A stretch of 24,000 nucleotides of DNA from Oscillospiraceae bacterium (GTDB lineage Bacteria; Bacillota; Clostridia; Oscillospirales; Ruminococcaceae). The position numbers and the translations under genes were made by a program. Below the pieces are notes generated by a model. That model was not told the origin of the DNA. It was given only the letters and a program-made list of their open reading frames with translations, and ran no database searches. Below are positions 868 through 15,622 of this stretch, one piece after another; position 1 is the stretch's first letter; each line of letters begins with the position of its first letter. Location of the stretch: positions 282 to 24,281 of the forward strand of contig JAZOOR010000050.1 in assembly GCA_045655125.1 (NCBI GenBank), in the 5' to 3' direction.

Positions 868-883
868 AACGGAGGAACTTTTA

Positions 884-2098
884 ATGAAACAGATACAGGG
901 CGGCATTTGCGCCGCAAAAGGCTTTACCGCAAACGGTATTCACTGTGGAATTCGGAAAAACCGCACAAAGAGGGATCTTTCGCTCATTTATAGCAGTACC
1001 CCTTGCACTGCGGCAGCGGTTTATACCCAAAATCTTGTTAAGGGTGCGCCTCTTTTAGTTACAAAAAAACATCTTGAAAACGGCAAGGCTCAGGCTGTTA
1101 TCTGCAACAGCGGAAATGCCAATACCTGCAATGCAAACGGAATTGAAATTGCAGAAAAAATGAGCAGCATACTTGCAGAAAAGCTTTCGATAAATACTGA
1201 TGATGTTGTCGTTGCTTCAACGGGAGTTATCGGTCAGCCTCTTGACATTACCCCTATTGAAAACGGCATACCCGCTCTAATTGAGGGTCTTTCCAAGAAT
1301 GGAGGCACAGCCGCCGCAGAGGGAATTATGACCACCGACACAGTAGAAAAAGAGATAGCAGTTGAGTTTACTGTCGGCGGCAAGACCTGCCGTATCGGCG
1401 GAATTGCAAAGGGCAGCGGTATGATTCATCCCAATATGGCAACAATGCTTGTATTTATCACAACCGATGTTGCAATATCCGCGCCCATGCTTAAAAAAGC
1501 ACTATCATCAGATATTTCAGATACCTTCAATATGATAAGTGTTGACGGTGACACCTCAACAAACGATATGGTAACTGTTCTTGCAAACGGTCAGGCAGAA
1601 AATTACGAGATTTGCGAGGAAAATGAGGATTTCAAGACCTTTATGAAGGCGCTTAACACCGTAAACGTTTATCTTTGCAAAAAGATAGCGGCTGACGGTG
1701 AGGGAGCTAGTAAGCTGCTCGAATGCTCTGTTAGCGGGGCCGCCAGCACTCTTGATGCCAAGGCGGTTGCTAAAAGTGTTGTCTGCTCAAGTCTTTTAAA
1801 GGCAGCAATGTTCGGCGCTGATGCAAACTGGGGCAGAGTTCTCTGTGCTATAGGTTACAGCAGAGCAAACCTTGATATAAACAAAGTTAGCGTTGCCTTT
1901 AAGAGCGCAAAGGGTAGTATTTTAGTCTGCGAAAACGGCGCAGGTGTTGACTTTTCCGAGGAAAAGGCAAAGGAAATTCTTTTGGAGAAAGAAATTGAAA
2001 TTGCAGTCGCCTTAGGTGACGGTGAGGCGGCAGCTACCGCTTGGGGCTGTGACCTTACATATGATTATGTTAAAATAAACGGCGATTACCGCACCTAA
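884..2098 (+). CDS. argJ: Bifunctional ornithine acetyltransferase / N-acetylglutamate synthase
   Basis: The self-cleavage region KGSGMIHPNMATMLVFITTD and the C-terminal CDLTYDYVKINGDYRT are typical of ArgJ. I prefer the ATG at 884, preceded by GGAGG at 871-875, over the track start at 860, which overlaps the argC stop. Confidence 0.9.
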   Translation: MKQIQGGICAAKGFTANGIHCGIRKNRTKRDLSLIYSSTPCTAAAVYTQNLVKGAPLLVTKKHLENGKAQAVICNSGNANTCNANGIEIAEKMSSILAEKLSINTDDVVVASTGVIGQPLDITPIENGIPALIEGLSKNGGTAAAEGIMTTDTVEKEIAVEFTVGGKTCRIGGIAKGSGMIHPNMATMLVFITTDVAISAPMLKKALSSDISDTFNMISVDGDTSTNDMVTVLANGQAENYEICEENEDFKTFMKALNTVNVYLCKKIAADGEGASKLLECSVSGAASTLDAKAVAKSVVCSSLLKAAMFGADANWGRVLCAIGYSRANLDINKVSVAFKSAKGSILVCENGAGVDFSEEKAKEILLEKEIEIAVALGDGEAAATAWGCDLTYDYVKINGDYRT

Positions 2099-2119
2099 AA
2101 GGAAAGAGAGGCTTTTAAT

Positions 2120-2992
2120 ATGGAAAACCATTTTTCTAATGCGCAGCGTGCCGAGGTGCTCACTCAGGCTCTGCCTCACATAAAGCGCTACAACGGCAAG
2201 GTTGTTGTGGTTAAATACGGCGGAAACGCTATGATTGATGAGGAAATCAAGCAGCAGGTTATGGAAGACATCGTGCTGCTCTGGCTCATCGGTGTTAAGA
2301 TTGTCTTGGTTCACGGCGGGGGTCCCGAGATTAGCGATATTATGCAAAAGCTCGGCAAACAGCCTCAGTTTGTGGATGGACTCAGAGTAACCGACAAGGA
2401 AACTGTAGATATAGTTCAGATGGTGCTTGCGGGAAAGGTTAACAAAAGCCTTGTAAATCTGCTTGAAATGAACGGCGGTAAAGCAATGGGCATCTCGGGT
2501 ATGGACGGCGGACTTATTGAGGCTGAGCCTAAGGACCCTCGTCTCGGATATGTCGGCTCTATCAAGAAAATTCATATTGACCCTGTTATCGACCTTCTTG
2601 AAAAGAACTATATCCCTGTAATTTCCACCGTCGGCTGCGACCGTGACGGTAACACATATAACATAAACGGCGACACCGCCGCCGCCTATATAGCAGGTGC
2701 TCTCGGCGCGGAAAGACTTATTATGATGACTGATATTGCAGGTATTCTTATGGATAAGGATGACCCCAAAACTCTTATTTCGGAAATCACCATCGACGAG
2801 GCTAAAAAACTGTTTAATGACAGCGTAATTTCAGGCGGAATGATTCCAAAGGTGCAGTGCTGTATTGATGCAATCTCTGAGGGAGTTAAAAATGTAATTA
2901 TAATGGATGGCAGAGTGCCTCATTCTATTCTTATGGAGCTTCTCACCGATGAGGGTGCAGGTACAATGGTAACCGGAGGAAAAAATGAATAA
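2120..2992 (+). CDS. argB: Acetylglutamate kinase
   Basis: Amino-acid-kinase family motifs are present: VVVKYGGNAM, VLVHGGGPEI and NINGDTAA. It sits between argJ and argD. Confidence 0.92.
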   Translation: MENHFSNAQRAEVLTQALPHIKRYNGKVVVVKYGGNAMIDEEIKQQVMEDIVLLWLIGVKIVLVHGGGPEISDIMQKLGKQPQFVDGLRVTDKETVDIVQMVLAGKVNKSLVNLLEMNGGKAMGISGMDGGLIEAEPKDPRLGYVGSIKKIHIDPVIDLLEKNYIPVISTVGCDRDGNTYNINGDTAAAYIAGALGAERLIMMTDIAGILMDKDDPKTLISEITIDEAKKLFNDSVISGGMIPKVQCCIDAISEGVKNVIIMDGRVPHSILMELLTDEGAGTMVTGGKNE

Positions 2993-4151
2993 TACTTTTG
3001 AACTTGACAAGTCTTATATTGCGGGAACATATGGTAGATTTCCAGTAGAGCTTGAGAGCGGAATGGGCAGCGAAATTTTTGCTCCCGATGGAAAGCGCTA
3101 TATTGATATGGGCTCAGGAATAGGTGTTACCGCGTTCGGCATTGCAGACAGTCAGTGGGTAGCCGCAGTGACAAGTCAGCTTTCACGGCTTCAGCACACA
3201 TCAAACCTCTACTACACCGAGCCTTGCGCCCGTCTTGCAAAGCTTCTTTGCGAGAGAACGGGTATGAAAAAGGTGTTTTTTGCAAACTCGGGAGCAGAGG
3301 CTAACGAATGTGCTATAAAAACTGCAAGAAAATATGCCGCTGAGAAAAAAGGCGCGGAGTATACTACTATTATAACTCTTGAAAACAGCTTTCATGGCAG
3401 AACAATAACCACCCTTGCTGCAACAGGTCAGGAGCATTATCACGAGCTGTTTCAGCCTTTGACTTCTGGCTTTGCTCACACCCCTGCAAATGATTTTGAG
3501 GCACTTAAAACACTTGCGGAGCAGAACAAAACCGCCGCTATAATGATAGAGTGCGTTCAGGGCGAGGGCGGAGTTATCGCGCTAAATGAGGATTTTGTAA
3601 AGAAAACTGCAGAGTATGCAAAGGAAAATGACATTCTTTTAATTGTTGACGAGGTGCAGACAGGAAACGGCAGAACAGGCAAGCTTTATGCCTATATGAA
3701 TTATGGCATTACCCCCGACATTGTTTCCACTGCAAAGGGAATAGGCGGCGGCCTTCCCCTCGGCGCTTGCCTACTTGGAGAAAAGGTTGAATTTACATTA
3801 GGAAAAGGCGACCACGGCTCTACCTTTGGCGGAAACCCCGTTTGCTGCGCGGGTGCGCTCAGCGTCCTTGAGAGAATTGATGAAAAGCTTCTTTCAGAGG
3901 TGGAGGATAAGAGCAAATATATTTTCGATAGATTAAACGGCGCAGAGGGAATTGAAAGCGTCAGCGGTCTGGGACTTATGATAGGCATTAAAACCGTAAA
4001 GCCTGCTTCCGAGGTTGTAAATGCCTGCATTGAAAAAGGCGTTCTCTGCCTTACTGCTAAGGATAAGGTCAGACTTCTGCCTGCGCTTAATATTCCTATG
4101 GATATTCTCGCCGAGGCTATTGAGATAATCTGTGGTATTTGCAAAGAGTAA
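2985..4151 (+). CDS. argD: Acetylornithine aminotransferase (class III PLP aminotransferase)
   Basis: Motifs seen are SGAEANE, DEVQTGNGRTGK, STAKGIGGG (PLP lysine) and STFGGNP. The start overlaps the argB stop by 8 nt, with GGAGGA at 2974-2979. Confidence 0.9.
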   Translation: MNNTFELDKSYIAGTYGRFPVELESGMGSEIFAPDGKRYIDMGSGIGVTAFGIADSQWVAAVTSQLSRLQHTSNLYYTEPCARLAKLLCERTGMKKVFFANSGAEANECAIKTARKYAAEKKGAEYTTIITLENSFHGRTITTLAATGQEHYHELFQPLTSGFAHTPANDFEALKTLAEQNKTAAIMIECVQGEGGVIALNEDFVKKTAEYAKENDILLIVDEVQTGNGRTGKLYAYMNYGITPDIVSTAKGIGGGLPLGACLLGEKVEFTLGKGDHGSTFGGNPVCCAGALSVLERIDEKLLSEVEDKSKYIFDRLNGAEGIESVSGLGLMIGIKTVKPASEVVNACIEKGVLCLTAKDKVRLLPALNIPMDILAEAIEIICGICKE

Positions 4152-4163
4152 GGAGAAAAGGAT

Positions 4164-5153
4164 ATGGAACTTAATTTAAAGGGTAAAAGCTTTTTAAAGC
4201 TATTAGATTTCACTCCGTCAGAGATAGAGGGGCTTATAAAGCTTGCTGCTGACCTTAAAAAGCAGAAAAAGGCAGGCATTTCCCACCGTATGTGCGAGGG
4301 AAAAAGCGTTGCTCTGCTTTTTGAAAAGGACAGCACCCGTACACGCTGCGCCTTTGAGGTTGCGGCGGCTGACCTCGGTATGCACCCCGTTTATCTCGGA
4401 CCCTCAGGCTCTCAGATGGGCAAAAAGGAAAGCATTGCCGACACCGCAAGGGTGCTTGGTAGAATGTTTGATGGTATTGAGTACCGCGGATATGGTCAGG
4501 AGATTGTTGAGGAGCTTGCAAGCTGCGCAGGTGTCCCCGTCTGGAACGGACTTACAAATGAATTTCACCCCACACAAATTCTTGCTGATTTCTTAACCAT
4601 TATAGAGCATTTTGGCACTCTCAAGGGTAAAAAACTCGTTTATATGGGTGATGCCCGCTATAATATGGGAAATTCTCTTATGGTCGGTTGCGCCAAAATG
4701 GGTATGCACTTTGTTGCTTGCGCTCCCAAAGAATATTTCCCGGGAAAAGAGCTTATAGAGGAGTGTAAGAAGGTAGCGGCTGAAACAGGCGCAGTTTTAG
4801 AGTTTATTGAAGAGCCGGAAAAAGCGGTTATCGGCGCCGATGTTATTTACACAGATGTGTGGGTTTCCATGGGCGAGGCAGACGAGGTTTGGGCAGAGCG
4901 TATCCGCCTGCTTTCACCCTATCAGGTAACCCGCAAGCTTATGGACATAGCAGGTAAACAGTGCCGCTTTATGCACTGTCTGCCCGCATTTCACGACCTT
5001 AAAACCAAAATCGGCAGAGAGGTTTATGAAAAATTCGGTATGGAGTGCTTAGAGGTCACCGATGAGGTGTTTGAGAGCGAGCAATCAATAGTTTTTGATG
5101 AGGCTGAAAATCGACTGCACACTATTAAAGCTGTAATGGCGGCAACACTGTAA
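4164..5153 (+). CDS. argF: Ornithine carbamoyltransferase
   Basis: It has the STRTR carbamoyl-phosphate motif, [12 protein letters not shown] and HCLPAF (the ornithine-type signature). AAGGAG lies upstream. Confidence 0.92.
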
Positions 5154-5204: not shown

Positions 5205-5482
5205 AATTTTTAAAAGGCTATGACGAAGACGGTTTGGTGCTTTAATGCTTTACAGAGAGTCGATGGCAGGTGAAAATCGGCAGCAGAGTTCCAAAAACCT
5301 ATCACTTCTGAGCCGGAAGCCCGAAAGCCGTAATGGTTAGTAGACGTTTCCCGTGATTGCTGCGTAAAGGCATAGGAGTTGATAGACTCTAAGAGTGGTA
5401 GCTTAGGCTGCAATTTGAGTGGTACCGCGGATGTTTTTAACACCCGTCTCAAAGAATTTCTTTGAGACGGGTTCTTTATTTT
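5205..5482 (+). promoter_or_regulatory. T-box riboswitch leader 1, specifier read as AUC (Ile) at 5301-5303
   Basis: Stem I elements seen are the GA/K-turn TGACGAAG (5221-5228) paired with CTTC-TGA (5305-5311), the AG bulge AGAGAG (5254-5259) and the distal loop GGTGAAA (5269-5275). The T-box sequence is TTTGAGTGGTACCGCGG (5414-5430). A terminator hairpin follows at 5442-5472 with a T-rich tail. The 5' boundary is approximate. Confidence 0.88.
5442..5482 (+). terminator. Intrinsic terminator of T-box leader 1
   Basis: A 13-bp perfect stem pairs ACCCGTCTCAAAG with CTTTGAGACGGGT, followed by TCTTTATTTT. Its 5' arm lies 11 nt downstream of the T-box sequence (5414-5430), so the intervening segment plus this arm could form the competing antiterminator. 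Confidence 0.85.
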
Positions 5483-5504: not shown

Positions 5505-7772
5505 ATGTCAACTGTTGCAAACGACAAGATGTACGAGGTGGCGATGCGAATTCGCGAGATGCGACTGATTGCAGGCTACAGTGAAAAAGAAATGGCTGAA
5601 AAAACCGAAACCGCGCTCGATACATACATAAAGCTTGAAGCAGGAGAATTAGACTTTCCTTTTTCTTTTATCCATAAATGCGCTCAGGTGTTTTCTATCG
5701 GTATGTCCGATCTTTTGGAGGGTGCAACTAGCGCCCGACTTACATCATACACCGTAACAAGACGCGGAAAAGGTCAGCAGACCGCAAAAGAGGACGGTAT
5801 CAATATCGCCAACCTCGCTCCCAAATTCAGAAATAAAATTGCTGAGCCTTACTGGGTAAAATATGATTTCGACCCCGCTCAGCAGAATAAACCTATTCAT
5901 TTAGCTACCCACAGCGGTCAGGAATTTGACCTTGTTATCAGCGGAAAGCTCAAGGTTCAGATAGGTGACCATATCGAAGTGCTTGAGGAGGGTGACAGCA
6001 TCTATTATGACTCCTCAACACCCCACGGTATGATAGCCGTAGACGGTCAGCAGTGTGTTTTTTGTGCAGTTGTTCTTCCCGGTGAAGACACCAAGGAAGA
6101 AACTGTTCGTCAGAGCATTGTTACTGCAAAAAAATCCGAGCCTCTTGTCTGCGAAAAATTTGTAAAAACTCAGGAAAACGAAAAGGGCGCCCTTGAGAAA
6201 ATTGAATTTACCAATACAGACACCTTTAACTTTGGCTTTGATATTGTAGATGAGATTGCAAATAAGTATCCAGACAAGCTTGCAATGCTGCATCTTGATA
6301 AAAATAAAAACGAGCGCCGCTTTACATTCAGAGATATCAAGCACTATTCAAGTCAGTGCGCTAACTACTTTACCTCGCTCGGAATTGGGCGCGGCGACAA
6401 GGTGATGCTTGTCTTAAAGCGCCACTACCAATTCTGGTTTGCGATGGTAGCTCTTCATAAAATCGGTGCCGTTGCAATTCCTGCAACCAATCAGCTTAAA
6501 GAGCATGATTTTGAATACCGCTTTAATGCCGCAGGCGTATCTGCAATCGTCTGCACTGCTGATGGTGACACCGCCGATATTGCCGCAGCTGCAGCTGAGA
6601 AATGTCCTCAGGTTAAGGCTAAGGTGCTTGTAGGCGGGAAAAAAGAGGGCTGGCATAACTTTGATGAGGAATACAGGCTTTTCTCTCGCAAATTTGAAAG
6701 ACCTGAAAATGCATCAGCAGGCGATGAAACCGCCCTCATGTTCTTTACTTCGGGTACAACGGGTAATCCCAAAATGGCTGCCCACAAGCACACCTATGCT
6801 CTGGGACATTTTGTAACCGCTAAGTACTGGCACTGCTGCGAGCGTGACGGACTGCACCTCACTATCTCCGATACGGGCTGGGGCAAGAGCCTTTGGGGTA
6901 AACTGTACGGTCAGTGGCTGTGCGAGGGCGCAGTGTTTGTCTATGACTTTGACCGCTTTGATGAAAATGACATTTTGCCGATGTTTGCAAAATACGGCAT
7001 CACCACCTTCTGCGCGCCGCCTACTATGCTGCGTATGCTCATTCGCGGTGATTTAAGCAAGTATGATTTAAGCTCTATCCATCATATGACAACTGCAGGT
7101 GAGGCATTAAACCCTGAGGTACACAAGCAGTTTAAAGCCGCAACGGGACTTGAGATTATGGAAGGCTTCGGACAGACCGAAACCACTCTTGCTATTGCAA
7201 ACCTTGTCGGCACAACTCCTAAAATCGGCTCAATGGGTAAGGCTTCTCCCCAGTTTGACCTTGATATTGTTGACCCCGATGGCAACAGTGTTCCGACGGG
7301 CGAGGTTGGCGAAATTGTTATCCACACAGATAAAGAAGTTTCTTGCGGACTCTTTAAGGAATATTATCTTGACGATGAAAAAACCTCTGATGCTTGGCAC
7401 GATGGACTTTATCACACAGGCGACACCGCTTGGCGCGATGAGGACGGATATTTCTGGTATGTTAGTCGTATTGACGATGTTATCAAGTCCTCAGGATACC
7501 GTATAGGACCTTTCGAGATTGAAAGCGTTATTATGGAGCTTCCCTATGTTGTTGAGTGCGGTGTTTCTGCTGCTCCCGATGAGGTTCGCGGTCAGGTTGT
7601 TAAGGCAAGCATAGTCTTAACAAAGGGTACCGAGGGAACTGAAGAGCTTAAAAAAGAAATTCAGCAGTATGTAAAGGAGCACACCGCTCCCTATAAGTAT
7701 CCCCGTGTTGTTGTATTCCGTGATAGCCTGCCCAAGACAATCAGCGGAAAAATTCAGAGGAATAAACTGTAA
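5505..7772 (+). CDS. Fusion protein: N-terminal XRE-type HTH + cupin domain, C-terminal AMP-forming medium/short-chain acyl-CoA synthetase (ACSM/MACS-like)
   Basis: AGGAGG lies at 5492-5497. The N-terminus has an HTH-like AMRIREMRLIAGYSEKEMAEKTE and a cupin core THSGQEFDLVISGKLKV...GDSIYYDSSTPHGM. The ligase motifs are FFTSGTTGNPKM, GFGQTE, YHTGDTAWRDEDGYFWYVSRIDDVIKSSGYRIGPFEIES and PKTISGKIQR. Confidence 0.85.
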   Translation: MSTVANDKMYEVAMRIREMRLIAGYSEKEMAEKTETALDTYIKLEAGELDFPFSFIHKCAQVFSIGMSDLLEGATSARLTSYTVTRRGKGQQTAKEDGINIANLAPKFRNKIAEPYWVKYDFDPAQQNKPIHLATHSGQEFDLVISGKLKVQIGDHIEVLEEGDSIYYDSSTPHGMIAVDGQQCVFCAVVLPGEDTKEETVRQSIVTAKKSEPLVCEKFVKTQENEKGALEKIEFTNTDTFNFGFDIVDEIANKYPDKLAMLHLDKNKNERRFTFRDIKHYSSQCANYFTSLGIGRGDKVMLVLKRHYQFWFAMVALHKIGAVAIPATNQLKEHDFEYRFNAAGVSAIVCTADGDTADIAAAAAEKCPQVKAKVLVGGKKEGWHNFDEEYRLFSRKFERPENASAGDETALMFFTSGTTGNPKMAAHKHTYALGHFVTAKYWHCCERDGLHLTISDTGWGKSLWGKLYGQWLCEGAVFVYDFDRFDENDILPMFAKYGITTFCAPPTMLRMLIRGDLSKYDLSSIHHMTTAGEALNPEVHKQFKAATGLEIMEGFGQTETTLAIANLVGTTPKIGSMGKASPQFDLDIVDPDGNSVPTGEVGEIVIHTDKEVSCGLFKEYYLDDEKTSDAWHDGLYHTGDTAWRDEDGYFWYVSRIDDVIKSSGYRIGPFEIESVIMELPYVVECGVSAAPDEVRGQVVKASIVLTKGTEGTEELKKEIQQYVKEHTAPYKYPRVVVFRDSLPKTISGKIQRNKL

Positions 7773-7824: not shown

Positions 7825-8098
7825 ATATTGAAAGGCATTGACGAAGAGTACACAAAGGAATGTCCCACAGAGAGATGGCGGCGGGTGAAAGTCCATCGGA
7901 AACAGCTTTTGTGTTTGTAGCTTCTGAGCCGAAAGGAAGAAAGCGTGCGCGTGAGTAGAACCTTTCCGTGACTGCTGCGTAAATGCATAGGAGTTGTTAG
8001 ACTCTAAGAGTGGCGGCGAGAGCTGCAATTTGAGTGGTACCGCGGGTGTATTTTACAGCACTCGTCTCAAAGTCATAGCTTTGGGGCGGGTGTTTTTT
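7825..8098 (+). promoter_or_regulatory. T-box riboswitch leader 2, specifier read as GUA (Val) at 7917-7919
   Basis: Elements seen are TGACGAAG (7839-7846) paired with CTTC-TGA (7921-7927), helix ACACAAA/TTTGTGT, AG bulge AGAGAG (7869-7874), distal loop GGTGAAA (7884-7890), T-box sequence TTTGAGTGGTACCGCGG (8029-8045) and a terminator at 8059-8098. The 3' half is close to identical to leader 1. Confidence 0.88.
8059..8098 (+). terminator. Intrinsic terminator of T-box leader 2
   Basis: A 14-bp stem pairs CACTCGTCTCAAAG with CTTTGGGGCGGGTG (three G-U pairs), with a 6-nt loop, followed by TTTTTT at 8093-8098. Confidence 0.82.
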
Positions 8099-8124: not shown

Positions 8125-10413
8125 ATGAAACAGATTACAGGGCTTGATTTTAAAATTCAGGAAATGGCAGGGCGTATCCGCGAGCTTCGTGAGATTGTCG
8201 GTCTTTCTGCCGAGCAGATGGCAGAGAAGACAGATGTTTCAGTAGAGGAATATCTTCTTTGCGAGGAGGGCAAAAGTGACCTAAACTTTGCCTTCATCTA
8301 TCGTTGTGCTCTGGCTTTCGGTGTTAACGTTACCGATATTATCGAGGGTTACAGCCCTAAGCTACGCTCTTATACCGTTACAAGAAACGGCGCAGGTCAG
8401 CAGATAGCCAATGCCCACGGTATGACCTATTATAACCTTGCATATGCTTTTCAGAACAGAATTGCTGAGCCTCTTTATGTCCGCAGCGCATATGACGAGT
8501 CAGCACAGGGAAAGGATATAGAGCTTACCACCCATTCGGGACAGGAGTGCGATATAGTAATAGAGGGTAACCTTATGGTGCAGATAGGTGAGCATCGTGA
8601 GGTGCTTTCTGCAGGTGACAGCATTTATTTTGACAGCTCCACCCCCCACGGCATGATTGCTGTAAATGGTAAGGACTGTGTTTTCTATGCCATAGTTCTA
8701 AACCCGACGGGTGAGCCTATCCCTGAGTTTGCGGCTAAGCCTAAAATCCCCGAAACCGTTAAAATCCCCGATGATACACGCGAGAGAATTTACCGTAACT
8801 ATACCACCGTTAAAAAGAATGAAAACGGAACCCCCGTTTCCATTGAATTTAAAAATACCGAGAAATTCAATTTCGCCTTTGACCTTGTCGACGCTCTCGC
8901 AGAGCGTGAGCCCGAAAAGCTTGCTATGCTACATATCGACAAAGAGGGAAAGGAGCGCCGCTTTACCTTCTCGGATATCAGCCGCGCCTCAAGTCAGTGC
9001 GCTAACTACTTTAAGTCACTCGGCATAAAGAAGGGCGACCGCGTTATGCTGGTCTTGAAGCGTCACTACCAGTTCTGGTTTGCGACCATTGGCTTAAACA
9101 AGCTTGGCGCTATTGCAATCCCCGCAACAAATCAGCTTCTTGAACACGATTTTGAGTATCGCTTTAAGGCGGCAGGAGTAAACACAATTATCTGCACCGC
9201 TGACGGTGATACTGCTAGAGAGGTAGAGGCGGCCGCCGAGAAGTACGGAAAAATTAAAAACAAGCTTATTGTTAACGGCAAAAGAGAGGGCTGGCGCAGC
9301 TTTGATGAGGAGTACACCCTCTTTAATAACTCCTTTGAGCGCACAGAGGATTCTCCCTGCGGTGATGACCTGCTTCTTATGTTCTTTACTTCGGGAACAA
9401 CAGGGTATCCCAAAATTGCGGCTCATAACCACAAATATCCCCTCGGCCATTTTCACACTGCTAAATACTGGCATAATGTTGATCCCGACGGTCTGCACTT
9501 TACCATTTCCGATACAGGCTGGGCAAAATCTATGTGGGGCAAGCTCTATGGTCAGTGGCTGTGCGAGGCGGCAATATTTGTCTATGACTTTGATAGGTTT
9601 GATGCCGCTGAAATCCTGCCTATGTTTGCAAAGCATAATATAACAACCTTCTGTGCACCCCCCACAATGCTTAGAATGATGGTTAAGCAGGATATTTCTA
9701 AATATGACCTTTCTTCCGTAAAGCATATGACAACCGCTGGTGAAGCACTCAATCCTGAGGTTTACCGTCAATTTGAAAAAGCAACGGGACTTCAGATTTT
9801 AGAGGGCTTTGGACAGACAGAAAGTACAATGATAATAGGAAATATGCGCGGTGCCGCGCATAAGATTGGCTCAATGGGCAAGCCTGCGCCTATTTATGAT
9901 GTAGAGCTTGTAGATGCCGATGGAAACCCTGTGCCCACAGGTGAGCCGGGCGAAATCGTTATCAATGTCAAAAACGGTATGCCCTGCGGTTTATTTACCG
10001 GCTACTATGGTGATGAGGAGAAAACACGCGAAGTTCTGCACGATGGATATTACCATACCGGCGACACCGCCTGGCGCGATGAGGATGGATATTTCTGGTA
10101 TGTCGGCAGGGTTGATGATGTTATCAAGTCCTCGGGCTACCGCATAGGACCCTTTGAGATTGAAAGCGTTATTATGGAGCTTCCCTATGTTCTTGAGTGT
10201 GGTGTATCCGCCGTTCCTGATGAGGTCAGGGGACAGATAGTCAAGGCAAGCATAGTCTTAACAAAAGGCACAGAGGGAACCGAGGAGCTTAAAAAGGAAA
10301 TTCAGAATTATGTTAAGGAGCACACCGCTCCCTATAAATACCCTCGTGTTGTTGTTTTTCGCGATAGCCTCCCCAAAACAGTCAGCGGAAAAATTCAGCG
10401 TAATAAGCTATAA
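8125..10413 (+). CDS. Paralogous fusion protein: XRE-type HTH + cupin + AMP-forming acyl-CoA synthetase (ACSM/MACS-like)
   Basis: The architecture and motifs match 5505-7772: THSGQECDIVIEGNLMV...GDSIYFDSSTPHGM, FFTSGTTGYPKI, GFGQTE, YHTGDTAWRDEDGYFWYVGRVDDVIKSSGYRIGPFEIES and PKTVSGKIQR. GGAGAG lies at 8113-8118. Confidence 0.85.
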   Translation: MKQITGLDFKIQEMAGRIRELREIVGLSAEQMAEKTDVSVEEYLLCEEGKSDLNFAFIYRCALAFGVNVTDIIEGYSPKLRSYTVTRNGAGQQIANAHGMTYYNLAYAFQNRIAEPLYVRSAYDESAQGKDIELTTHSGQECDIVIEGNLMVQIGEHREVLSAGDSIYFDSSTPHGMIAVNGKDCVFYAIVLNPTGEPIPEFAAKPKIPETVKIPDDTRERIYRNYTTVKKNENGTPVSIEFKNTEKFNFAFDLVDALAEREPEKLAMLHIDKEGKERRFTFSDISRASSQCANYFKSLGIKKGDRVMLVLKRHYQFWFATIGLNKLGAIAIPATNQLLEHDFEYRFKAAGVNTIICTADGDTAREVEAAAEKYGKIKNKLIVNGKREGWRSFDEEYTLFNNSFERTEDSPCGDDLLLMFFTSGTTGYPKIAAHNHKYPLGHFHTAKYWHNVDPDGLHFTISDTGWAKSMWGKLYGQWLCEAAIFVYDFDRFDAAEILPMFAKHNITTFCAPPTMLRMMVKQDISKYDLSSVKHMTTAGEALNPEVYRQFEKATGLQILEGFGQTESTMIIGNMRGAAHKIGSMGKPAPIYDVELVDADGNPVPTGEPGEIVINVKNGMPCGLFTGYYGDEEKTREVLHDGYYHTGDTAWRDEDGYFWYVGRVDDVIKSSGYRIGPFEIESVIMELPYVLECGVSAVPDEVRGQIVKASIVLTKGTEGTEELKKEIQNYVKEHTAPYKYPRVVVFRDSLPKTVSGKIQRNKL

Positions 10414-10422: not shown

Positions 10423-11088
10423 ATGGATTTTAAAAGAATCACTATGCTTTGCGGTCATTATGGCAGCGGAAAAACCAATGTTGCCGTAAATCTCGCACTT
10501 AAAATGGCAGAGAGCCGCGAAAACGTTGTGGCGCTCGATCTTGATATCGTAAACCCCTATTTCAGAACAAAGGATAGTATAAAGGAGCTGAAAGAGGCGG
10601 GAATTCGCCTTATTGCATCCTCTTATGCTAATACCAATGTTGATATTCCCGCGCTACCGCAGGAAATGTATGCAGTAACCGATGATAAGAGTATAACCGC
10701 GGTTTTAGATGTCGGTGGAGATGACAGAGGCGCACTTGCATTAGGCCGCCTTGCCCCCGCCATACTATCCGAAAACGATTATGAAATGCTTATGGTCATA
10801 AACTGCTACAGACCGCTTACAAAAACCGCCAAAGAGACCATTAAGGTTATGCGCGAGATAGAAACCGCCTGCGGCATTAAGTTTACGGGACTTGTCAACA
10901 ACTCAAATCTCGGCGCAATCACAACGCAGGAGGATATAATCGCCTCGCTGCCGTATGCGCAGGAGATTTCCGAAAAAACGGGGCTTCCCCTCGTTTACAC
11001 AAGTGTTCGTGAGGACATTTCTGAGGGACTTATGGAAAAAGTACCAAATCTTTTCCCATTATCCTTGCAGAAAAACCTCTTGATATAA
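10423..11088 (+). CDS. P-loop NTPase of unknown role (SIMIBI-like; Walker A GHYGSGKT)
   Basis: Motifs seen are Walker A GHYGSGKTN, then ALDLDIVNPYF and LDVGGDDRG (Walker B/switch-like). It lies 9 nt after the ligase stop and 31 nt before the ferredoxin gene. The family assignment is tentative. Confidence 0.6.
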   Translation: MDFKRITMLCGHYGSGKTNVAVNLALKMAESRENVVALDLDIVNPYFRTKDSIKELKEAGIRLIASSYANTNVDIPALPQEMYAVTDDKSITAVLDVGGDDRGALALGRLAPAILSENDYEMLMVINCYRPLTKTAKETIKVMREIETACGIKFTGLVNNSNLGAITTQEDIIASLPYAQEISEKTGLPLVYTSVREDISEGLMEKVPNLFPLSLQKNLLI

Positions 11089-11119
11089 CTTTTCGATTTT
11101 ATGAAAGGGAGTAATACAT

Positions 11120-11326
11120 ATGGCAAAACTCACATTTAAAACCGACAACTGTAAGGGCTGCGGACTTTGTATTGATGCCTGCCCCAAGAAGCTCTTGAGA
11201 CTTGCAGCAGACAAAATCAATTTAAAGGGACACCACCCCGCAGAAATTATTGATGAGGCTGCGTGCGTTGGATGTGCATCCTGTGCAATGATGTGTCCCG
11301 ACTGCATTATTAAGGTAGAAAGGTAG
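11120..11326 (+). CDS. 2x[4Fe-4S] ferredoxin, delta-type subunit of 2-oxoacid:ferredoxin oxidoreductase
   Basis: It is 68 aa with two CxxCxxCxxxCP motifs (CKGCGLCIDACP and CVGCASCAMMCP). It sits immediately upstream of the alpha subunit. Confidence 0.85.
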   Translation: MAKLTFKTDNCKGCGLCIDACPKKLLRLAADKINLKGHHPAEIIDEAACVGCASCAMMCPDCIIKVER

Positions 11327-11335
11327 TGAAATAAT

Positions 11336-12403
11336 ATGGCAGATAAAGTTTTGATGAAAGGAAACGAAGCGATAGCAGAGGCTGCAATTTTAGCAGGCTG
11401 CCGCCATTACTTCGGATATCCTATCACTCCGCAAACCGAAATTGCCGCATATATGGCAAAGAAAATGCCTAAAATCGGCGGCTGCTTTTTGCAGGCTGAG
11501 AGTGAAATTGCCGCTATCAATATGGTATACGGTGTTTCCTCTACAGGTAAAAGAGTTATGACCTCGTCGTCATCTCCCGGAATTTCCTTAAAGGGTGAGG
11601 GACTTTCGTATCTCGCAGGTGCTGACCTGCCCGCGCTTATTGTTAATGTTCAGCGCGGCGGACCCGGACTTGGCGGTATTCAGCCCTCGCAGTCTGACTA
11701 TTTCCAGGCTACAAGAGCCGCAGGCCACGGCGACTTTCATATGATAGTCCTCGCTCCCGCATCTGTTCAGGAGATGGCAGAGCTTACTGTAAAAGGCTTC
11801 GAGCTTGCAGATACATACAGAATGACAGCTATGATTTTGGCAGACGGAACTATGGGACAAATGATGGAGCCTGTTTCTCTTGATTTTGATGTTAAGCCTA
11901 TGCCCGCAAAGCCCTGGGCAACTGTTGGAACTAAGATGGAAAGAGAGCACAATATTACAAACTCCCTCTTCCTCGTTCCTGAAGACCTTGAAAAGATAAA
12001 CTTTGAGCGCTATGAGCGCTATAAAAAGATTGAGGAAACCGAAGTTATGTACGAGGAGTATATGATGGAGGATGCCGAAATCTGCATTGCAGCCTTTGGT
12101 ATTGCCGCAAGAGTTTCCAAAAATGCCGTTAATGAGGCAAGAAAAATGGGAATTAAGGTAGGTCTTATCCGCCCTATCACCCTCTGGCCTTTCCCCAAGG
12201 CTCCTTTCAAGAAGGCCGCAGAAAAAGTAAAGCAGATTATCTCTGTTGAACTTTCTATGGGACAGATGATTGAGGATGTCAAGATGGCATCTGAGTGCAA
12301 GGTTCCCGTAACATTAGTAAACCGCGTCGGCGGAATGATTCCCTCGCCCGAGCAGGTTTTAGAGGCAATAGTCGAGGCGGCTAAAAACGGAGGTGCAAAA
12401 TAA
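11336..12403 (+). CDS. 2-oxoacid:ferredoxin oxidoreductase alpha subunit (context suggests branched-chain 2-oxoacid, VOR-like)
   Basis: The N-terminus MKGNEAIAEAAILAGCRHYFGYPITPQTEI and QAESEIAAINMVYG...SSPGISL are typical of OFOR alpha subunits. Substrate cannot be read from the sequence by eye. Confidence 0.85.
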   Translation: MADKVLMKGNEAIAEAAILAGCRHYFGYPITPQTEIAAYMAKKMPKIGGCFLQAESEIAAINMVYGVSSTGKRVMTSSSSPGISLKGEGLSYLAGADLPALIVNVQRGGPGLGGIQPSQSDYFQATRAAGHGDFHMIVLAPASVQEMAELTVKGFELADTYRMTAMILADGTMGQMMEPVSLDFDVKPMPAKPWATVGTKMEREHNITNSLFLVPEDLEKINFERYERYKKIEETEVMYEEYMMEDAEICIAAFGIAARVSKNAVNEARKMGIKVGLIRPITLWPFPKAPFKKAAEKVKQIISVELSMGQMIEDVKMASECKVPVTLVNRVGGMIPSPEQVLEAIVEAAKNGGAK

Positions 12404-13161
12404 TGGCAGTTGTATTTGATAAACCCCATGCATTAACCGATGCTCCTATGCATTACTGCCCCGGCTGTACACACGGTATAGTTCACCGCCTTGTTGCCGA
12501 GGTTATTGATGAATTGGGCATCGAGGGCAGAACTATAGGTATTGCTCCCGTTGGCTGCTCTGTTATGGCTTATAACTATTTTGCCTGTGATATGATTGAG
12601 GCTGCACACGGCAGAGCTCCCGCAGTTGCAACAGGTGTTAAGCGTGCCGACCCCGAAAACCACATTGTTTTCACCTATCAGGGCGATGGCGACCTCGCTT
12701 CAATCGGTATGGCTGAAACTGTTCATGCTGCCGCAAGAAATGAGAATATTACCGTTATCTTTATAAATAATGCTATTTACGGTATGACAGGCGGCCAAAT
12801 GGCTCCCACCTCGCTTCCCGGTCAGGTTACACAGACTTCACCCTACGGCAGAGATACAAGCCACTGCGGTTTTCCCGTTAAGGTTTGCGAAATGCTTTCG
12901 CAGCTTGATGGACCCGAGTACTTAGAAAGAGTCACCGTTAATAATGTTAAGAATATCCGCGCTGCTAAAAAGGCTATTAAAAAAGCTTTTCAGAATCAGG
13001 TAGAGGGCAAAGGCTTCTCACTTATTGAAGTTGTTTCTTCCTGCCCTACAAACTGGGGTATGACACCGGGGGCGGCTCTTAAGTGGATTGACGATAATAT
13101 GCTTCCTTACTACCCTCTCGGTGTGTATAAGGACAGAAGCGCAAAAAAGGAGGAAGAATAA
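12403..13161 (+). CDS. 2-oxoacid:ferredoxin oxidoreductase beta (TPP-binding) subunit
   Basis: Motifs seen are YCPGCTHGIV, the TPP motif GDGDLASIG...NNAIYGMTGGQ, and a [4Fe-4S] cysteine pattern. It overlaps the alpha stop by 1 nt. Confidence 0.88.
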   Translation: MAVVFDKPHALTDAPMHYCPGCTHGIVHRLVAEVIDELGIEGRTIGIAPVGCSVMAYNYFACDMIEAAHGRAPAVATGVKRADPENHIVFTYQGDGDLASIGMAETVHAAARNENITVIFINNAIYGMTGGQMAPTSLPGQVTQTSPYGRDTSHCGFPVKVCEMLSQLDGPEYLERVTVNNVKNIRAAKKAIKKAFQNQVEGKGFSLIEVVSSCPTNWGMTPGAALKWIDDNMLPYYPLGVYKDRSAKKEEE

Positions 13162-13694
13162 TGGCTACAAAACAGTACCTGTTTTCAGGCTTCGGCGGTC
13201 AGGGAATTTTGTTTTCGGGTAAATTCTTAGCCTATAAGGGTCTGACTGAAGGCAAAAATGTAAGCTGGCTCCCCTCATATGGCCCCGAAATGCGCGGAGG
13301 AACTGCAAGCTGTAGCGTTATCATAAGTGATGAGGCTGTAGGCTCTCCTATCGTTTCAAATCCCGATGTTCTTGTTGCTATGAACCTGCCCTCCCTTGAT
13401 AAGTTTGAGGATAGCGTTGCAAAGGGCGGCATTATCATCGCAGATTCCACCCTCATTGAAAGAAAAGTTAAGCGCGATGATGTAACAGTTTACTATGTTC
13501 CCGCCACCCGCCTTGCAAGTGAGAATGACATTCCCACCCTCGCCAATATGATTATTATCGGCAAGCTTATGCAGGCAACAGGCGAGTATAGCGAAGAGGG
13601 CGTAAACACCGCTCTCTCCAAGGTTATTTCGGCAAAACGCGCCAATATGCTTGAAGCAAACTTCAAGGCAATCAAAATCGGCGCAGAGTATTAA
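13161..13694 (+). CDS. 2-oxoacid:ferredoxin oxidoreductase gamma subunit
   Basis: FSGFGGQGILFSGKFLA...SYGPEMRGGTASCSV is the OFOR gamma signature. It overlaps the beta stop by 1 nt. Confidence 0.88.
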   Translation: MATKQYLFSGFGGQGILFSGKFLAYKGLTEGKNVSWLPSYGPEMRGGTASCSVIISDEAVGSPIVSNPDVLVAMNLPSLDKFEDSVAKGGIIIADSTLIERKVKRDDVTVYYVPATRLASENDIPTLANMIIIGKLMQATGEYSEEGVNTALSKVISAKRANMLEANFKAIKIGAEY

Positions 13695-13711
13695 GTCAGG
13701 AGGAAAAGGAA

Positions 13712-14776
13712 ATGCAGATTTCTTTTACAAAAACCACTTGTCCTAAGGAAAAACCCGATAGCAGCAATCTCGGATTTGGTAAAATCTTTACCGACCATAT
13801 GTTTATGATGGATTATTCAAGAGAGAAAGGCTCTTGGTACAATGCAAGAATAGTTCCCTTTGAGAACATTTCTCTGCACCCTGCATCAACAGTTCTTCAC
13901 TACGGCTCTGAGATTTTTGAAGGACTTAAAGCTTATAGAAGAGCCGATGGCAAGGTTCAGCTTTTCCGTCCTATCGAGAATATCCGCAGAATGAACAGCT
14001 CCGCAGAGCGCCTCTGCCTGCCTCAGATTCCCGAGGAGGATGCGCTGCAGGTTCTCACCGAGTTTGTAAAAATTGAGCAGGACTGGACTCCGTCTGCTTC
14101 GGGCACATCCCTCTACCTGCGCCCCTTTATGTTCGGAAATGATGAATCACTCGGAGTTCACGCCGTTCATAATGCTACCTTTGTTATCATAGCTTCACCC
14201 GTTGGCAGCTATTATAAAGAAGGCATCAACCCCGTTAAGATTATGATTGAGGATGAGGATGTCAGAGCTGTCCGCGGCGGCACAGGCTATGCAAAATGCG
14301 GCGGTAATTACGCTGCAAGTAACCGTGCAGGCGAGAGAGCAGAGCAGAAAGGCTATTCTCAGGTTCTCTGGCTCGATGGCGTTGAGAGAAAATATATTGA
14401 GGAAGTCGGCGCTATGAATGTTATGTTCAAAATCGCAGGCGAAATCGTAACCCCCGCACTTAGCGGTTCAATTCTCCCAGGCATCACAAGAAAATCAATT
14501 ATTGAGCTTTTAAATAGCGAAGGCTATAAGGTAAGTGAGAGACTTCTCTCTATCGATGAGCTCGAAAAAGCTCTTGAAAACGGAACACTTGAAGAGGCTT
14601 GGGGCTGCGGCACCGCCGCTGTTGTTTCCCCCATCGGTGAGCTTTGCTACAAGGATAAAAAGTACACCGTTTCGGGCGGCAAAATCGGAGAGGTCACTCA
14701 GCACCTTTACGATACTTTAACAGGTATCCAGTGGGGTAAATTAAAGGATAACTTCGGCTGGACAGTAGAACTCTAA
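13712..14776 (+). CDS. ilvE: Branched-chain amino acid aminotransferase (class IV, long form)
   Basis: Motifs seen are FTDHMF, LHYGSEIFEGLKAYR, YLRPFMFG, GGTGYAKCGGNYAAS, PGITRKS and GCGTAAVVSPI. AGGAGG lies upstream. Confidence 0.9.
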   Translation: MQISFTKTTCPKEKPDSSNLGFGKIFTDHMFMMDYSREKGSWYNARIVPFENISLHPASTVLHYGSEIFEGLKAYRRADGKVQLFRPIENIRRMNSSAERLCLPQIPEEDALQVLTEFVKIEQDWTPSASGTSLYLRPFMFGNDESLGVHAVHNATFVIIASPVGSYYKEGINPVKIMIEDEDVRAVRGGTGYAKCGGNYAASNRAGERAEQKGYSQVLWLDGVERKYIEEVGAMNVMFKIAGEIVTPALSGSILPGITRKSIIELLNSEGYKVSERLLSIDELEKALENGTLEEAWGCGTAAVVSPIGELCYKDKKYTVSGGKIGEVTQHLYDTLTGIQWGKLKDNFGWTVEL

Positions 14777-14780
14777 ATTA

Positions 14781-14813
14781 TAAAAAAGAGAGGGCAGATG
14801 CCCTCTCTTTTTT
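14781..14813. terminator. Intrinsic terminator, potentially bidirectional
   Basis: A 9-bp GC-rich stem AGAGAGGGC (14787-14795) / GCCCTCTCT (14800-14808) has a 4-nt loop. It is flanked by AAAAAA upstream and TTTTT downstream, and sits between convergent ilvE and the minus-strand HTH gene. Confidence 0.85.
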
Positions 14814-14859
14814 AGTGAATAATGAATAATTCTAGTGGCGATTTATGAGTTGCCCGTTT

Positions 14860-15066: not shown

Positions 15067-15083
15067 AAAATTACCTTTTGAGC

Positions 15084-15257: not shown

Positions 15258-15271
15258 ACATATTACCTCCG

Positions 15272-15334
15272 TTACAATTTGTAATTATATTGTATTACTA
15301 AATGTGCAATAAATAACTATTGCATTTGTAATGC
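15272..15334. promoter_or_regulatory. Divergent control region with three inverted repeats (candidate operators)
   Basis: The repeats are TTACAA-t-TTGTAA (15272-15284), TGCAATA-n6-TATTGCA (15305-15324) and GCATT-tgt-AATGC (15322-15334). ATTTGTAAT occurs twice (15277-15285 and 15324-15332). A possible + strand promoter is TTGCAT 15320-15325 / TACAAT 15343-15348 with a 17-nt spacer. Confidence 0.5.
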
Positions 15335-15615: not shown

Positions 15616-15622
15616 AGGTGCA

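Follow-up and report, generated by a model that had tools for sequence, protein, structure and literature searches.

A fused HTH-like and cupin module in Clostridia of the gut and rumen: a candidate accessory domain of Macs-type acyl-CoA synthetases

In an Oscillospiraceae bacterium, two acyl-CoA synthetase genes on a 24,000-nt stretch of contig JAZOOR010000050.1 (hereafter the window) each start with about 200 codons resembling a complete transcription factor of the XRE-cupin kind. Does this N-terminal module read DNA, or does it act on the enzyme to which it is attached?

The two genes (ligase 1, 5505..7772, 755 aa; ligase 2, 8125..10413, 762 aa; these and the domains, promoters, leaders and operon genes mapped below are on the + strand) were each one unbroken frame with a good ribosome-binding site. 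Both encoded a five-helix domain of the XRE type that led into a Cupin_2 barrel, which a short linker joined to a complete AMP-forming ligase. In ligase 1 the XRE-like domain comprised residues 10–73 (5532..5723) and was followed by an inter-domain segment (residues 74–109, 5724..5831), the cupin barrel (110–192, 5832..6080), a flexible acidic linker (193–210, 6081..6134, pLDDT 30–42) and the Macs-type synthetase domain (211–755, 6135..7769); in ligase 2 the XRE-like domain comprised residues 12–75 (8158..8349) and the barrel residues 111–193 (8455..8703). By Pfam, Cupin_2 exceeded its curated cut-off in both proteins (residues 128–189 of ligase 1, E 4e-11; residues 128–190 of ligase 2, E 1e-12), and AMP-binding and then AMP-binding_C were found downstream of the module (E 7e-68 and 2e-22). 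HTH_19 (32.0 bits) and HTH_3 (24.1 bits) were above cut-off at residues 17–77 of ligase 2; the HTH_19 score of ligase 1, 16.5 bits, fell below the cut-off of 30.2. With a profile built from the family's first ~200 residues, matches were obtained to XRE HTH structures (PbsX-family 9k3w, E 4e-5; SinR; 434 repressor) as well as to the XRE-cupin protein 1y9q (E 2e-5). The AlphaFold model of the module had helices at residues 2–23, 27–33, 38–45, 53–63 and 67–71 (pLDDT 80–96 for the five helices of the domain in ligase 1), then a beta-barrel, and its two-domain Foldseek matches in the PDB included HppE (E 9e-10) and 1y9q (E 6e-9). The preliminary description had proposed an HTH plus cupin layout for both ligases and had named profile searches as its check; both folds were borne out by Pfam, profile search, AlphaFold and Foldseek, with HTH_19 below cut-off in ligase 1, and the cupin motifs that it had pointed out were present (THSGQEFD...GDSIYYDSSTPHGM and THSGQECD...GDSIYFDSSTPHGM). 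A small XRE protein was also encoded elsewhere in the window (14860–15066), with a net charge of +2 and an HTH_3 score of 57.8 bits.

The inter-domain segment of ligase 1 was near-invariant among homologs (L79, Y82, T85, R86, G88, G90, G98, L104, A105 and F108) and was modelled with low confidence (pLDDT below 50 at residues 73–81 and 88–105). A linker of 40–50 residues had been described. Because homology to Macs (3ETC residue 21 onward) started near residue 209 of the fusion, and low confidence at the module/ligase junction was confined to residues 194–210, the true linker was set at about 17 residues. In the full-length AlphaFold model, made from a shallow alignment of 36 sequences mostly 82–95% identical, the linker was disordered and the module was not confidently docked on the ligase (pTM 0.61).

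The ligase domains were 51–52% identical to MacsMa (PDB 3ETC), the medium-chain acyl-CoA synthetase of Methanosarcina acetivorans, over ~520 residues (E 7e-185), a close kinship with a characterised 2-methylbutyrate/isobutyrate enzyme. Their AMP-binding and AMP-binding_C domains and the A10 lysine in an SGKIQR motif (K749 in ligase 1, K756 in ligase 2) placed them in the ANL superfamily. MbcS was the best NCBIfam model, at 437 and 444 bits; since its equivalog cut-off is 850, the window ligases are not MbcS equivalogs. MacsMa and MbcS share the catalytic part but, unlike the window ligases, have been characterised as ~525–580-aa proteins without HTH-cupin. According to the published reports (PMC10455477; PMC10026030), MacsMa and S. 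aureus MbcS favour acids of the 2-methylbutyrate/isobutyrate type. On its own, recombinant MacsMa has activity but performs poorly, with a Km for CoA of 4.09 mM and a kcat of 2.15 per second, compared with 0.19 mM and 81.6 per second for an Acs; it adenylates many acids that it cannot thioesterify, and forms and then releases or hydrolyses the non-cognate acyl-adenylates (PMC10455477).

Upstream of ligase 1 were promoter P1 (5169..5197; TTGACA, 17 nt, TATAAT, TG-extended -10; 12/12 consensus matches), an Ile T-box leader with an AUC specifier (5211..5454) and a terminator hairpin (5442–5472). Ligase 2 was likewise preceded by promoter P2 (7788..7817; TTGACA, 18 nt, TATACT, TG-extended -10; 11/12 consensus matches), a Val T-box leader with a GUA specifier (7829..8072) and a terminator hairpin (8057–8094). 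The leaders scored 88.2 bits (E 6e-20) and 84.1 bits against Rfam RF00230, both (E about 1e-18 to 1e-20) slightly under the gathering score of 93, and the T-box layer of control claimed earlier was confirmed for both genes. Specifiers were retained among orthologs, as ATC in 72 of 75 ligase 1 leaders and as GTA or GTC in 54 of 56 ligase 2 leaders. After ligase 2, the Val-T-box operon encoded a P-loop protein, VOR alpha/beta/gamma and a branched-chain aminotransferase (BCAT) (10423..14776; Pfam and NCBIfam, VorB 534 bits against a cut-off of 399 and BCAT 484 bits against 307), in a gene order kept in related loci. Further on, a Leu T-box operon has its promoter (P3 of the preliminary description) upstream of 15627. 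The cluster looks like a route from branched acids to Val and Ile. A preference for branched short-chain acids is predicted by the specifiers of the two T-boxes, Ile and Val, and by the presence of VOR and BCAT genes nearby, and the most likely substrates, predicted from sequence and context, would be 2-methylbutyrate for ligase 1 (Ile T-box) and isobutyrate for ligase 2 (Val T-box).

Among species-representative genomes, at least 591 from Clostridia of the gut and rumen (the related genomes being MAGs) matched the HTH-cupin-ligase fusion, mostly with two copies in tandem as in the window, and fused sequences ran to thousands (8000 scored hits). The earlier remark that enzyme/regulator fusions are uncommon therefore needs qualifying, since this one is abundant in those Clostridia. 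In all 80 loci fetched the module was fused to a ligase of ~545 aa, rather than being a free-standing protein of ~180–200 aa; the ligase-less ORFs among them were only contig-end cuts or, in one locus (L002), an apparent frameshift split. The closest stand-alone relatives (182–185 aa, E down to 1e-62) were encoded in Bacteroidales, a spirochaete, Christensenellales and the archaeon Methanocella. At ~74–77 of the 78 loci with enough downstream sequence (~95%), the stand-alone module lay directly upstream of a Macs ortholog on the same strand, a ligase of ~551–556 aa often just 5–25 nt away. These ligases were 58–67% identical to MacsMa (3ETC), which, with the 51–52% identity of the window ligases, made fused and split ligases one enzyme family. 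In many Bacteroidales loci the stand-alone gene followed proC by 25–60 nt; in another locus (L168) it overlapped the preceding gene by 11 nt, and in a third (L167) the module was fused to cytidylate kinase with the ligase still next. The pairs in Bacteroidales and Methanocella persisted without a nearby VOR gene; Parabacteroides and Tannerella, like Methanocella, are split-pair organisms. That some genomes encode the module separately and others as part of the ligase suggests that it is tied to the enzyme, and from this distribution it looks like a conserved partner of the Macs-type ligase family, whether encoded by its own gene upstream or within the ligase gene. Two interleaved pairs in L168 had been considered as a sign of one-to-one specificity; the argument was weakened, as the first pair consisted of a distant HTH-cupin protein (27% identity, net charge +1) and a ligase of a different family. 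Full-text literature searches turned up no publication that describes the fusion or the gene pair.

The preliminary description had proposed that the fused proteins may bind DNA and regulate their own genes. BirA, a group II biotin protein ligase that is also the bio repressor, has an N-terminal HTH on an adenylate-forming enzyme, and further enzyme-regulator fusions exist (PutA and NadR). By Pfam, the window ligases matched the BirA order of domains on one chain, though with an HTH of doubtful DNA-binding competence, and BirA is a natural model of a regulating ligase. A bifunctional enzyme/repressor of this type would bind an operator through the HTH, with the cupin and/or the acyl-adenylate co-repressing its own or other BCAA genes on top of the T-box. 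In its favour are the recognisable XRE HTH (Pfam in ligase 2; the SinR, 434 and PbsX-family profile matches), the purifying selection on that domain, and the precedent of such fusions and of FadD1, an acyl-CoA ligase reported as a transcription factor (PMC12754631). The XRE-cupin proteins that have been characterised act as dimers and repress neighbouring targets (PMC7901475), so the split arrangement alone would fit a local repressor.

The composition of the domain argued against this. The HTH domain was acidic in 190 of 190 sequences, with net charges of -3 to -11 (never above -3) and family means of -6.4 (n=81, ligase 1 orthologs), -5.7 (n=50, ligase 2 orthologs) and -4.4 (n=59, the remaining family); the values in the window were -5 for ligase 1 and -6 for ligase 2. 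By the same measure the reference binders were basic (434 repressor +3, 1y9q +3, SinR +1 and 9k3w +1), and the small XRE protein of the window, at +2, also contrasted with the module. The 434-repressor contacts Q28, Q29, S30, Q33, K40, R41 and R43 aligned to L, D, T, K, D, F and F in ligase 1 and to V, E, E, L, D, L and F in ligase 2. The family consensus at contact positions was E-E-E; the canonical base and phosphate contact positions were occupied by Glu, Asp or hydrophobic residues and varied among orthologs. The ligase 1 HTH, moreover, evolved at about the speed of the linker (mean identity 57% against 55%).

Nor was an operator detected. No conserved or enriched palindrome was found in the aligned upstream regions of P1 and P2 (~75 for ligase 1 and 56 for ligase 2); the best inverted-repeat arms averaged 5.50 nt at P1 and 5.35 nt at P2, against 5.18 and 5.20 nt in shuffles (~50 loci each). 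Only the -35/-10 hexamers and the T-box were conserved in these alignments, promoter spacers not being so, and the distance from the upstream stop codon to each T-box was only ~57 nt, filled by the consensus promoter elements. A palindromic operator at the promoter, as in XRE-cupin repressors, or one in the promoter of the own operon, as in BirA, was thus absent from ~100 P1/P2 regions by this indirect sequence test. By eye, 45 non-redundant regions upstream of stand-alone homologs had no shared palindrome either, and these homologs were often placed inside operons without room for a promoter or operator. BirA also differs in having a winged helix, no cupin, and established DNA binding and operator. 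DNA binding is not strictly incompatible with an acidic domain, and the operator scan covered the genes' own promoters; the charge, contact positions and own-promoter scans gave DNA binding by the HTH-like domain no support. The earlier proposal of DNA binding with auto-regulation was not supported by these tests, the DNA-binding competence of the HTH is doubtful given its acidity, and we regard a bifunctional enzyme/repressor as unlikely.

How, then, does the module compare with true XRE-cupin transcription factors (1Y9Q of Vibrio cholerae, PuuR, ErfA, PauR and PsdR)? It has the same N-terminal five-helix Cro/C1 fold (Pfam in ligase 2, profiles and model) and C-terminal cupin beta-barrel (Cupin_2 and modelled strands), the sensor role of the latter being putative, and in both cases the genes adjoin related genes. 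The cupin of that family is a ligand pocket, with D-methionine bound in 1Y9Q (PMC7901475). Unlike these factors, the module goes with a single enzyme family, either covalently fused to it or encoded beside it, and has no detectable operator; polar or basic contact residues are missing from its helical domain, which is strongly acidic.

The cupin carried a candidate metal site. A His-Glu-His triad lay at barrel positions H136 (5910–5912), E140 (5922–5924) and H174 (6024–6026) of ligase 1 and H137 (8533–8535), E141 (8545–8547) and H175 (8647–8649) of ligase 2, and was invariant across the fused and split families together with Gln139, Asp164, Tyr167, Met176 and Arg86; the polar pocket residues counted as invariant were Q139, D164, S165, Y167 and R86. 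Several barrel positions were fixed differently between the two paralogs (120 Y/S, 132 H/E, 141 F/C and 187 C/Y), which would fit a ligand varying with the acyl or amino-acid series.

The same site raised the possibility that the cupin is catalytic, as an HppE-type second enzyme working with the ligase on the acid, acyl-adenylate or acyl-CoA by editing/hydrolysis or isomerisation. HppE, HEPD and MPnS, the best two-domain structural matches (E 1e-9 to 1e-7), outranked 1y9q and share the two-domain layout of the module; their own HTH-like alpha-domain does not bind DNA and their cupin carries a 2-His-1-Glu site, which means that an HTH-cupin architecture does not imply a transcription factor. 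His136, Glu140 and His174 aligned opposite HppE residues 138, 142 and 180 (alignment coordinates), which we take to be its iron ligands. N-N bond-forming enzymes reportedly have catalytic cupins fused to adenylate-forming domains, and an editing partner is conceivable for an enzyme that, like MacsMa, makes and discards non-cognate acyl-adenylates. However, identity to HppE was just ~15–16%, and TM-scores were 0.3–0.35, low because the domain orientation is uncertain. Regulator 1y9q aligned with at least the Glu and second His of the triad, so the metal site cannot tell an enzyme from a sensor. Phosphonate substrates, oxidative chemistry or a phosphonate cluster found no counterpart in the neighbourhood (arg, VOR, BCAT and leuA-like genes), unlike the context and oxidant-dependent phosphonate chemistry of HppE, HEPD and MPnS, and the hosts are presumably strict anaerobes. 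An HppE-like oxygenase function was judged unlikely on these grounds. The BCFA-to-BCAA route, moreover, needs no added chemical step, and isobutyrate has no stereocentre. A catalytic cupin of whatever chemistry is, in our estimate, slightly less probable than a BirA-like repressor.

Divergence between the paralogs was uneven: identity was 44% in the HTH, 64% in the cupin, 69% in the ligase N-domain and 93% in the ligase C-domain, and just 27% across residues 193–240 in the linker region. The HTH regions were therefore the most diverged structured parts, in agreement with what had been noted before. Recent gene conversion was rejected as the source of the 93% identity, the DNA there being merely ~80% identical. 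With dN/dS ~0.2 or lower in every domain (dS saturated) and the module in every complete gene, a decaying fusion relic was rejected too. F53, F55 and C59 of helix 4 were invariant in both fused paralog families and not in the split family, which suggests a fusion-specific interface. This invariance, the flexible linker suited to a tethered assembly domain and the dimeric function of XRE-cupin proteins (PMC7901475) would suit a pure scaffold that only oligomerises the ligase or tethers VOR or other partners, with a structural metal and no ligand sensing, but the invariant polar pocket and paralog-specific barrel positions resemble a binding site more than a structural core and the pairing holds without nearby VOR, making this the least probable of the alternatives.

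Sensing of a small molecule by the cupin, with an effect on the ligase, agrees better with the evidence than does DNA binding, and the conserved module/ligase partnership strengthens this reading. On balance, the module is probably an accessory or regulatory domain that binds a metal and a ligand and acts on the ligase itself; that it binds a ligand, which ligand this is and that catalysis is affected, we infer. The N-terminal ~200 residues would be the fused form of an accessory protein of Macs-type short/branched-chain acyl-CoA synthetases, made of an XRE-like helical domain and a metal-binding cupin and tethered by the ~17-residue flexible linker. The cupin would bind a metal through His136, Glu140 and His174, plus a small carboxylate-type ligand, and the module would exert protein-level control over the enzyme that carries it, by allostery, gating of the thioester half-reaction or control of assembly. 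The acidic HTH-like domain would serve as a packing or dimerisation surface and not as a DNA reader. The acyl-CoA products would feed VOR-dependent reductive carboxylation and then transamination to Ile and Val.

Partners of adenylating enzymes have parallels. MbtH-like proteins are small conserved partners of NRPS A-domains, and like the cupins joined to MetRS-like enzymes in hydrazine synthetases they adjoin, or are fused to, an adenylating enzyme that they modulate or extend. MbtH-like folds and partners are unrelated to those here, the chemistry of the N-N bond cupins differs, and the partner role of the module is putative.

A wider proposal is more tentative, and we hold it as possible though rather improbable as a whole: the module may be an unrecognised, widespread subunit that regulates or activates the Macs-type synthetases of anaerobic Bacteria and of Methanocella. 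It would derive from a transcription-factor fold that lost DNA binding, and a metal-bound ligand would gate the thioester step or substrate choice. The weak kinetics and loose adenylation of lone MacsMa leave room for a missing modulator; since MacsMa works partnerless in vitro, catalysis as such does not require the module, and a tie between these kinetics and the module is speculation. If true, the proposal would explain the 4 mM Km for CoA of lone MacsMa and its waste of ATP on non-cognate acids, and would let Clostridia of the gut and rumen check BCFA-to-BCAA assimilation by end product or substrate, in addition to the T-boxes. A natural partner may have been missing when MacsMa, the model enzyme, was characterised.

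Names such as 'XRE family transcriptional regulator' or 'cupin domain-containing protein' call for caution next to a ligase gene: of the proteins so annotated there, thousands may be something other than transcription factors. Bacteria that degrade fibre in the rumen and gut use isobutyrate, 2-methylbutyrate and isovalerate as growth factors. Should the module control the first, ATP-consuming step, it would be a new control point and, for the large ANL superfamily, a new type of accessory domain.

The domain layout given in the preliminary description, a helix-turn-helix (HTH) and a cupin followed by a full ligase, was recovered in both ligase 1 (5505–7772, + strand, 755 aa) and ligase 2 (8125–10413, + strand, 762 aa) by Pfam, profile, AlphaFold and Foldseek analyses. 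Cupin_2 exceeded the Pfam cut-off in both proteins, as did HTH_19 and HTH_3 in ligase 2, while in ligase 1 HTH_19 reached only 16.5 bits. A profile of this N-terminal part (ca. 200 residues, the module) matched XRE HTH structures and the XRE-cupin protein 1y9q, its AlphaFold model comprised five helices and then a barrel, and two-domain structural matches (HppE and 1y9q) were detected with Foldseek. The catalytic part was a complete ANL enzyme carrying the A10 lysine, belonged to the Macs branch of these ligases and did not qualify for the MbcS equivalog. It was 51–52% identical to the Methanosarcina acetivorans acyl-CoA synthetase MacsMa (PDB 3ETC), whose preferred acid is 2-methylbutyrate (PMC10455477). 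The linker, supposed to be 40–50 residues long, shrank to ~17 (194–210, pLDDT below 50), since the N-terminus of stand-alone Macs already aligned from about residue 209. In a full-length AlphaFold model (pTM 0.61) the docking of module and ligase was not placed with confidence. Residues 74–109 of ligase 1 (5724–5831), between the HTH and the barrel, were almost invariant within each paralog family (e.g. YTVTR.G.GQ and NLAP.F, the ligase 2 equivalent included) and had a predicted pLDDT below 50 despite this conservation; the segment may become ordered only upon binding of a ligand or partner.

The ligase genes lay directly downstream of argC (partial)-J-B-D-F (352–5153, + strand) and were followed by genes for a P-loop protein, a three-subunit ferredoxin oxidoreductase of the 2-oxoisovalerate type (VOR) and a branched-chain aminotransferase (BCAT) (10423–14776, + strand). 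Each ligase had its own consensus promoter, P1 (5169–5197, TTGACA-17-TATAAT) for ligase 1 and P2 (7788–7817, TTGACA-18-TATACT) for ligase 2, and its own T-box leader, at 5211–5454 (88 bits, specifier AUC, Ile) and 7829–8072 (84 bits, specifier GUA, Val), specifiers being taken from Rfam alignments. Both leaders scored slightly below the Rfam gathering score (E ~1e-18 to 1e-20) and would thus be overlooked by a default Rfam scan. Upstream of the ligase-1 type the specifier was Ile in 72 of 75 related loci, and upstream of the ligase-2 type Val in 54 of 56. A third T-box (15627–15863, 124 bits, specifier CUC, Leu) preceded an operon (15911–20642) encoding a short, 465-aa LeuA-like synthase, an 839-aa protein in which a xylose-isomerase-like TIM barrel (AP_endonuc_2) is joined to an AMP-forming ligase from another family, and an Amidohydro_2 protein; three adjacent transcription units were thus headed by Ile, Val and Leu T-boxes. 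This trio of genes stood beside HTH-cupin ligases in many related loci. An aminotransferase gene and pheA occupied the far end of the window. The P-loop protein (10423–11088, 221 aa) had weak Pfam matches to CbiA, ParA and Zeta-toxin and no match in NCBIfam, and most related loci kept its gene between ligase 2 (or BCAT) and VOR. The low-GC stretch (~0.38) from the BCAT gene to the Leu T-box (14777–15626) carried two minus-strand ORFs, a canonical 68-aa XRE HTH protein (14860–15066, HTH_3 57.8 bits) and a 57-aa product without a Pfam match (15084–15257), and resembles a small insertion, either a regulator or a toxin-antitoxin-type cassette.

In a scan restricted to one genome per species, at least 591 loci with the fusion were detected. 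The best 80 of these all came from gut and rumen MAGs of Oscillospirales and Christensenellales, and every complete module-bearing ORF among them included the ligase; the top match among the listed loci was 77% identical. In most loci fetched, the tandem pair was followed by the P-loop, VOR and BCAT genes in the same order. Full-length members were numerous in public databases, the closest being 82–95% identical to ligase 1, under names (where given) such as “AMP-binding protein”, “cupin domain-containing protein” and “acetyl-CoA synthetase”. Thus the architecture was not new to databases, but it had no functional name, and no paper on the fusion or on a module-ligase pair was found in the literature searched.

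An exhaustive profile search detected many stand-alone proteins of ~184 aa, from Bacteroidales, a spirochaete, Christensenellales and Methanocella, that matched the module end to end and shared its His-Glu-His triad and acidic helix 3. A ~554-aa AMP-binding gene lay immediately 3′ of the module, on the same strand, in Methanocella and in one MAG each of Christensenellales and Tannerella. Across 85 stand-alone loci, mainly from a metagenome scan and skewed to Bacteroidales-like sequences by search patterns drawn from alignment A4, a same-strand ligase followed the module in ~74–77 of the 78 whose downstream sequence was long enough. Gaps ranged from 5 nt to ~560 nt (many just 10–25 nt), and these ligases were Macs orthologs, 58–67% identical to 3ETC. 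Module and ligase, adjacent but separate proteins in some lineages and a single chain in others, fitted the classic pattern of cooperating proteins. It is the enzyme that the module tracks, rather than the pathway context. The pair came directly after proC in many Bacteroidales-like loci, in some of which an argD-like aminotransferase gene was also present; like the position of the arg operon upstream of ligase 1, this may be coincidental or may reflect a connection with Arg and Pro metabolism. Nucleotide or CoA kinases adjoined the module repeatedly: in a MAG locus, L167 (5001–7898), a cytidylate kinase was fused to it (P0374, 401 aa) with a Macs-type ligase 22 nt later, and in L086 the gene 20 nt upstream of the stand-alone module encoded a dephospho-CoA kinase (CoaE). 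A spirochaete MAG contig (L168, 1–10555) had the order Fer4, VOR alpha/beta/gamma, HTH-cupin, ligase, HTH-cupin, ligase, FabH, ACP, FabK, FabD; in the first pair the HTH-cupin was a distant one (net charge +1) and the ligase came from an unrelated family. This first pair suggests that XRE-cupin proteins and acyl-CoA ligases are linked more broadly, a link tied in L168 to branched-chain fatty-acid priming. The stand-alone module gene of this contig overlapped the preceding gene by 11 nt.

By fold the module grouped with XRE-cupin proteins, and it had been proposed to bind DNA; an enzyme-repressor like BirA, an analogy for this reading only, would do so. Four indirect tests (charge, contact positions, promoters and operon position) went against DNA binding. 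The mean net charge of the HTH domain was −6.4 in the ligase-1 family (n = 81), −5.7 in the ligase-2 family (n = 50) and −4.4 in the stand-alone (split) family (n = 59), with −3 the highest in any member, against +3 for 434 repressor and 1y9q and +1 for SinR and 9k3w; the XRE protein at 14860–15066 (minus strand, net charge +2) provided an internal contrast. At the 434 repressor contact positions (Q28, Q29, S30, Q33, K40, R41 and R43, from a HMMER alignment), ligase 1 had L, D, T, K, D, F and F and ligase 2 had V, E, E, L, D, L and F. These positions differed among orthologs, and helix 3 began with a consensus E-E-E. Charge and contact residues, as read from sequence, lower the odds of DNA binding by the module without reducing them to nil, and sites elsewhere in the genome are conceivable targets. 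In ~100 orthologous P1 and P2 regions conservation was limited to the −35 and −10 hexamers, and inverted repeats were no better than in shuffled sequences (5.50 vs 5.18 nt and 5.35 vs 5.20 nt). Many stand-alone homologs began 25–60 nt behind proC or overlapped the preceding gene, leaving no space for their own promoter and operator. Since the module failed these tests and was not free-standing in the ligases, it was not filed as a transcription factor, and a BirA-like role is unlikely.

The strong divergence described for the two HTH regions was borne out: ligases 1 and 2 were 44% identical there, against 64% in the cupin, 69% in the ligase N-domain and 93% in the ligase C-domain; the linker was 27% identical. 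The C-domains (7455–7769 and 10096–10410) were encoded by DNA of which the matching repeat (7344–7643 and 9985–10284) was only ~80% identical, which speaks for strong purifying selection and against recent gene conversion. The ligase-1 HTH was the fastest-evolving structured part (57% mean identity, near that of the linker). Decay of the HTH domain was rejected by a dN/dS of ~0.2 or lower, with dS saturated. Helix 4 (F53, F55 and C59) was invariant across both fused families, though not across the split one, a hint of a fusion-specific interface.

The metal triad (His136, Glu140 and His174; His137, Glu141 and His175 in ligase 2) was invariant in fused and split families, as were Arg86, Gln139, Asp164, Tyr167 and Met176. 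In alignment coordinates the triad lay opposite HppE residues 138, 142 and 180, which we take to be the HppE iron ligands. At least the Glu and second His also aligned with 1y9q, which binds D-methionine in its cupin pocket (PMC7901475). The metal site therefore cannot separate a sensor, such as the regulator 1y9q, from an enzyme; a catalytic cupin, performing editing or isomerisation, is considered marginally less likely than a BirA-like repressor. Barrel positions 120 (Y/S), 132 (H/E), 141 (F/C) and 187 (C/Y) were fixed differently in the Ile- and Val-linked paralogs, and such residues would suit a ligand differing between the two series.

The module is somewhat more probably than not an accessory or regulatory domain that acts on the ligase in cis. 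We infer a ligand, a metal, an interaction and an effect on catalysis: the cupin would bind a metal together with a small ligand of the carboxylate type (the acid substrate, the 2-oxoacid, the amino acid formed as end product and a CoA species being candidates), and the ligand-binding module would modulate the attached enzyme. The acidic helical domain might serve in packing or dimerisation, by analogy with the HTH-like domain of HppE; a pure assembly scaffold is the least probable reading. A cis-acting domain would find its closest analogies in the accessory proteins of adenylating enzymes and in HppE, whose helical domain does not bind DNA. MacsMa alone has a Km(CoA) of 4.09 mM and a kcat of 2.15 per second (an Acs has 0.19 mM and 81.6 per second), and adenylates many acids without being able to make thioesters of them (PMC10455477). 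A connection of these kinetics with the module is suggestive but unproven; a partner gating the second half-reaction or substrate choice would make physiological sense. The module, in a fusion that is widespread yet unstudied in the literature searched, was rated as a transcription-factor fold that has been co-opted as the dedicated partner or domain of an enzyme.
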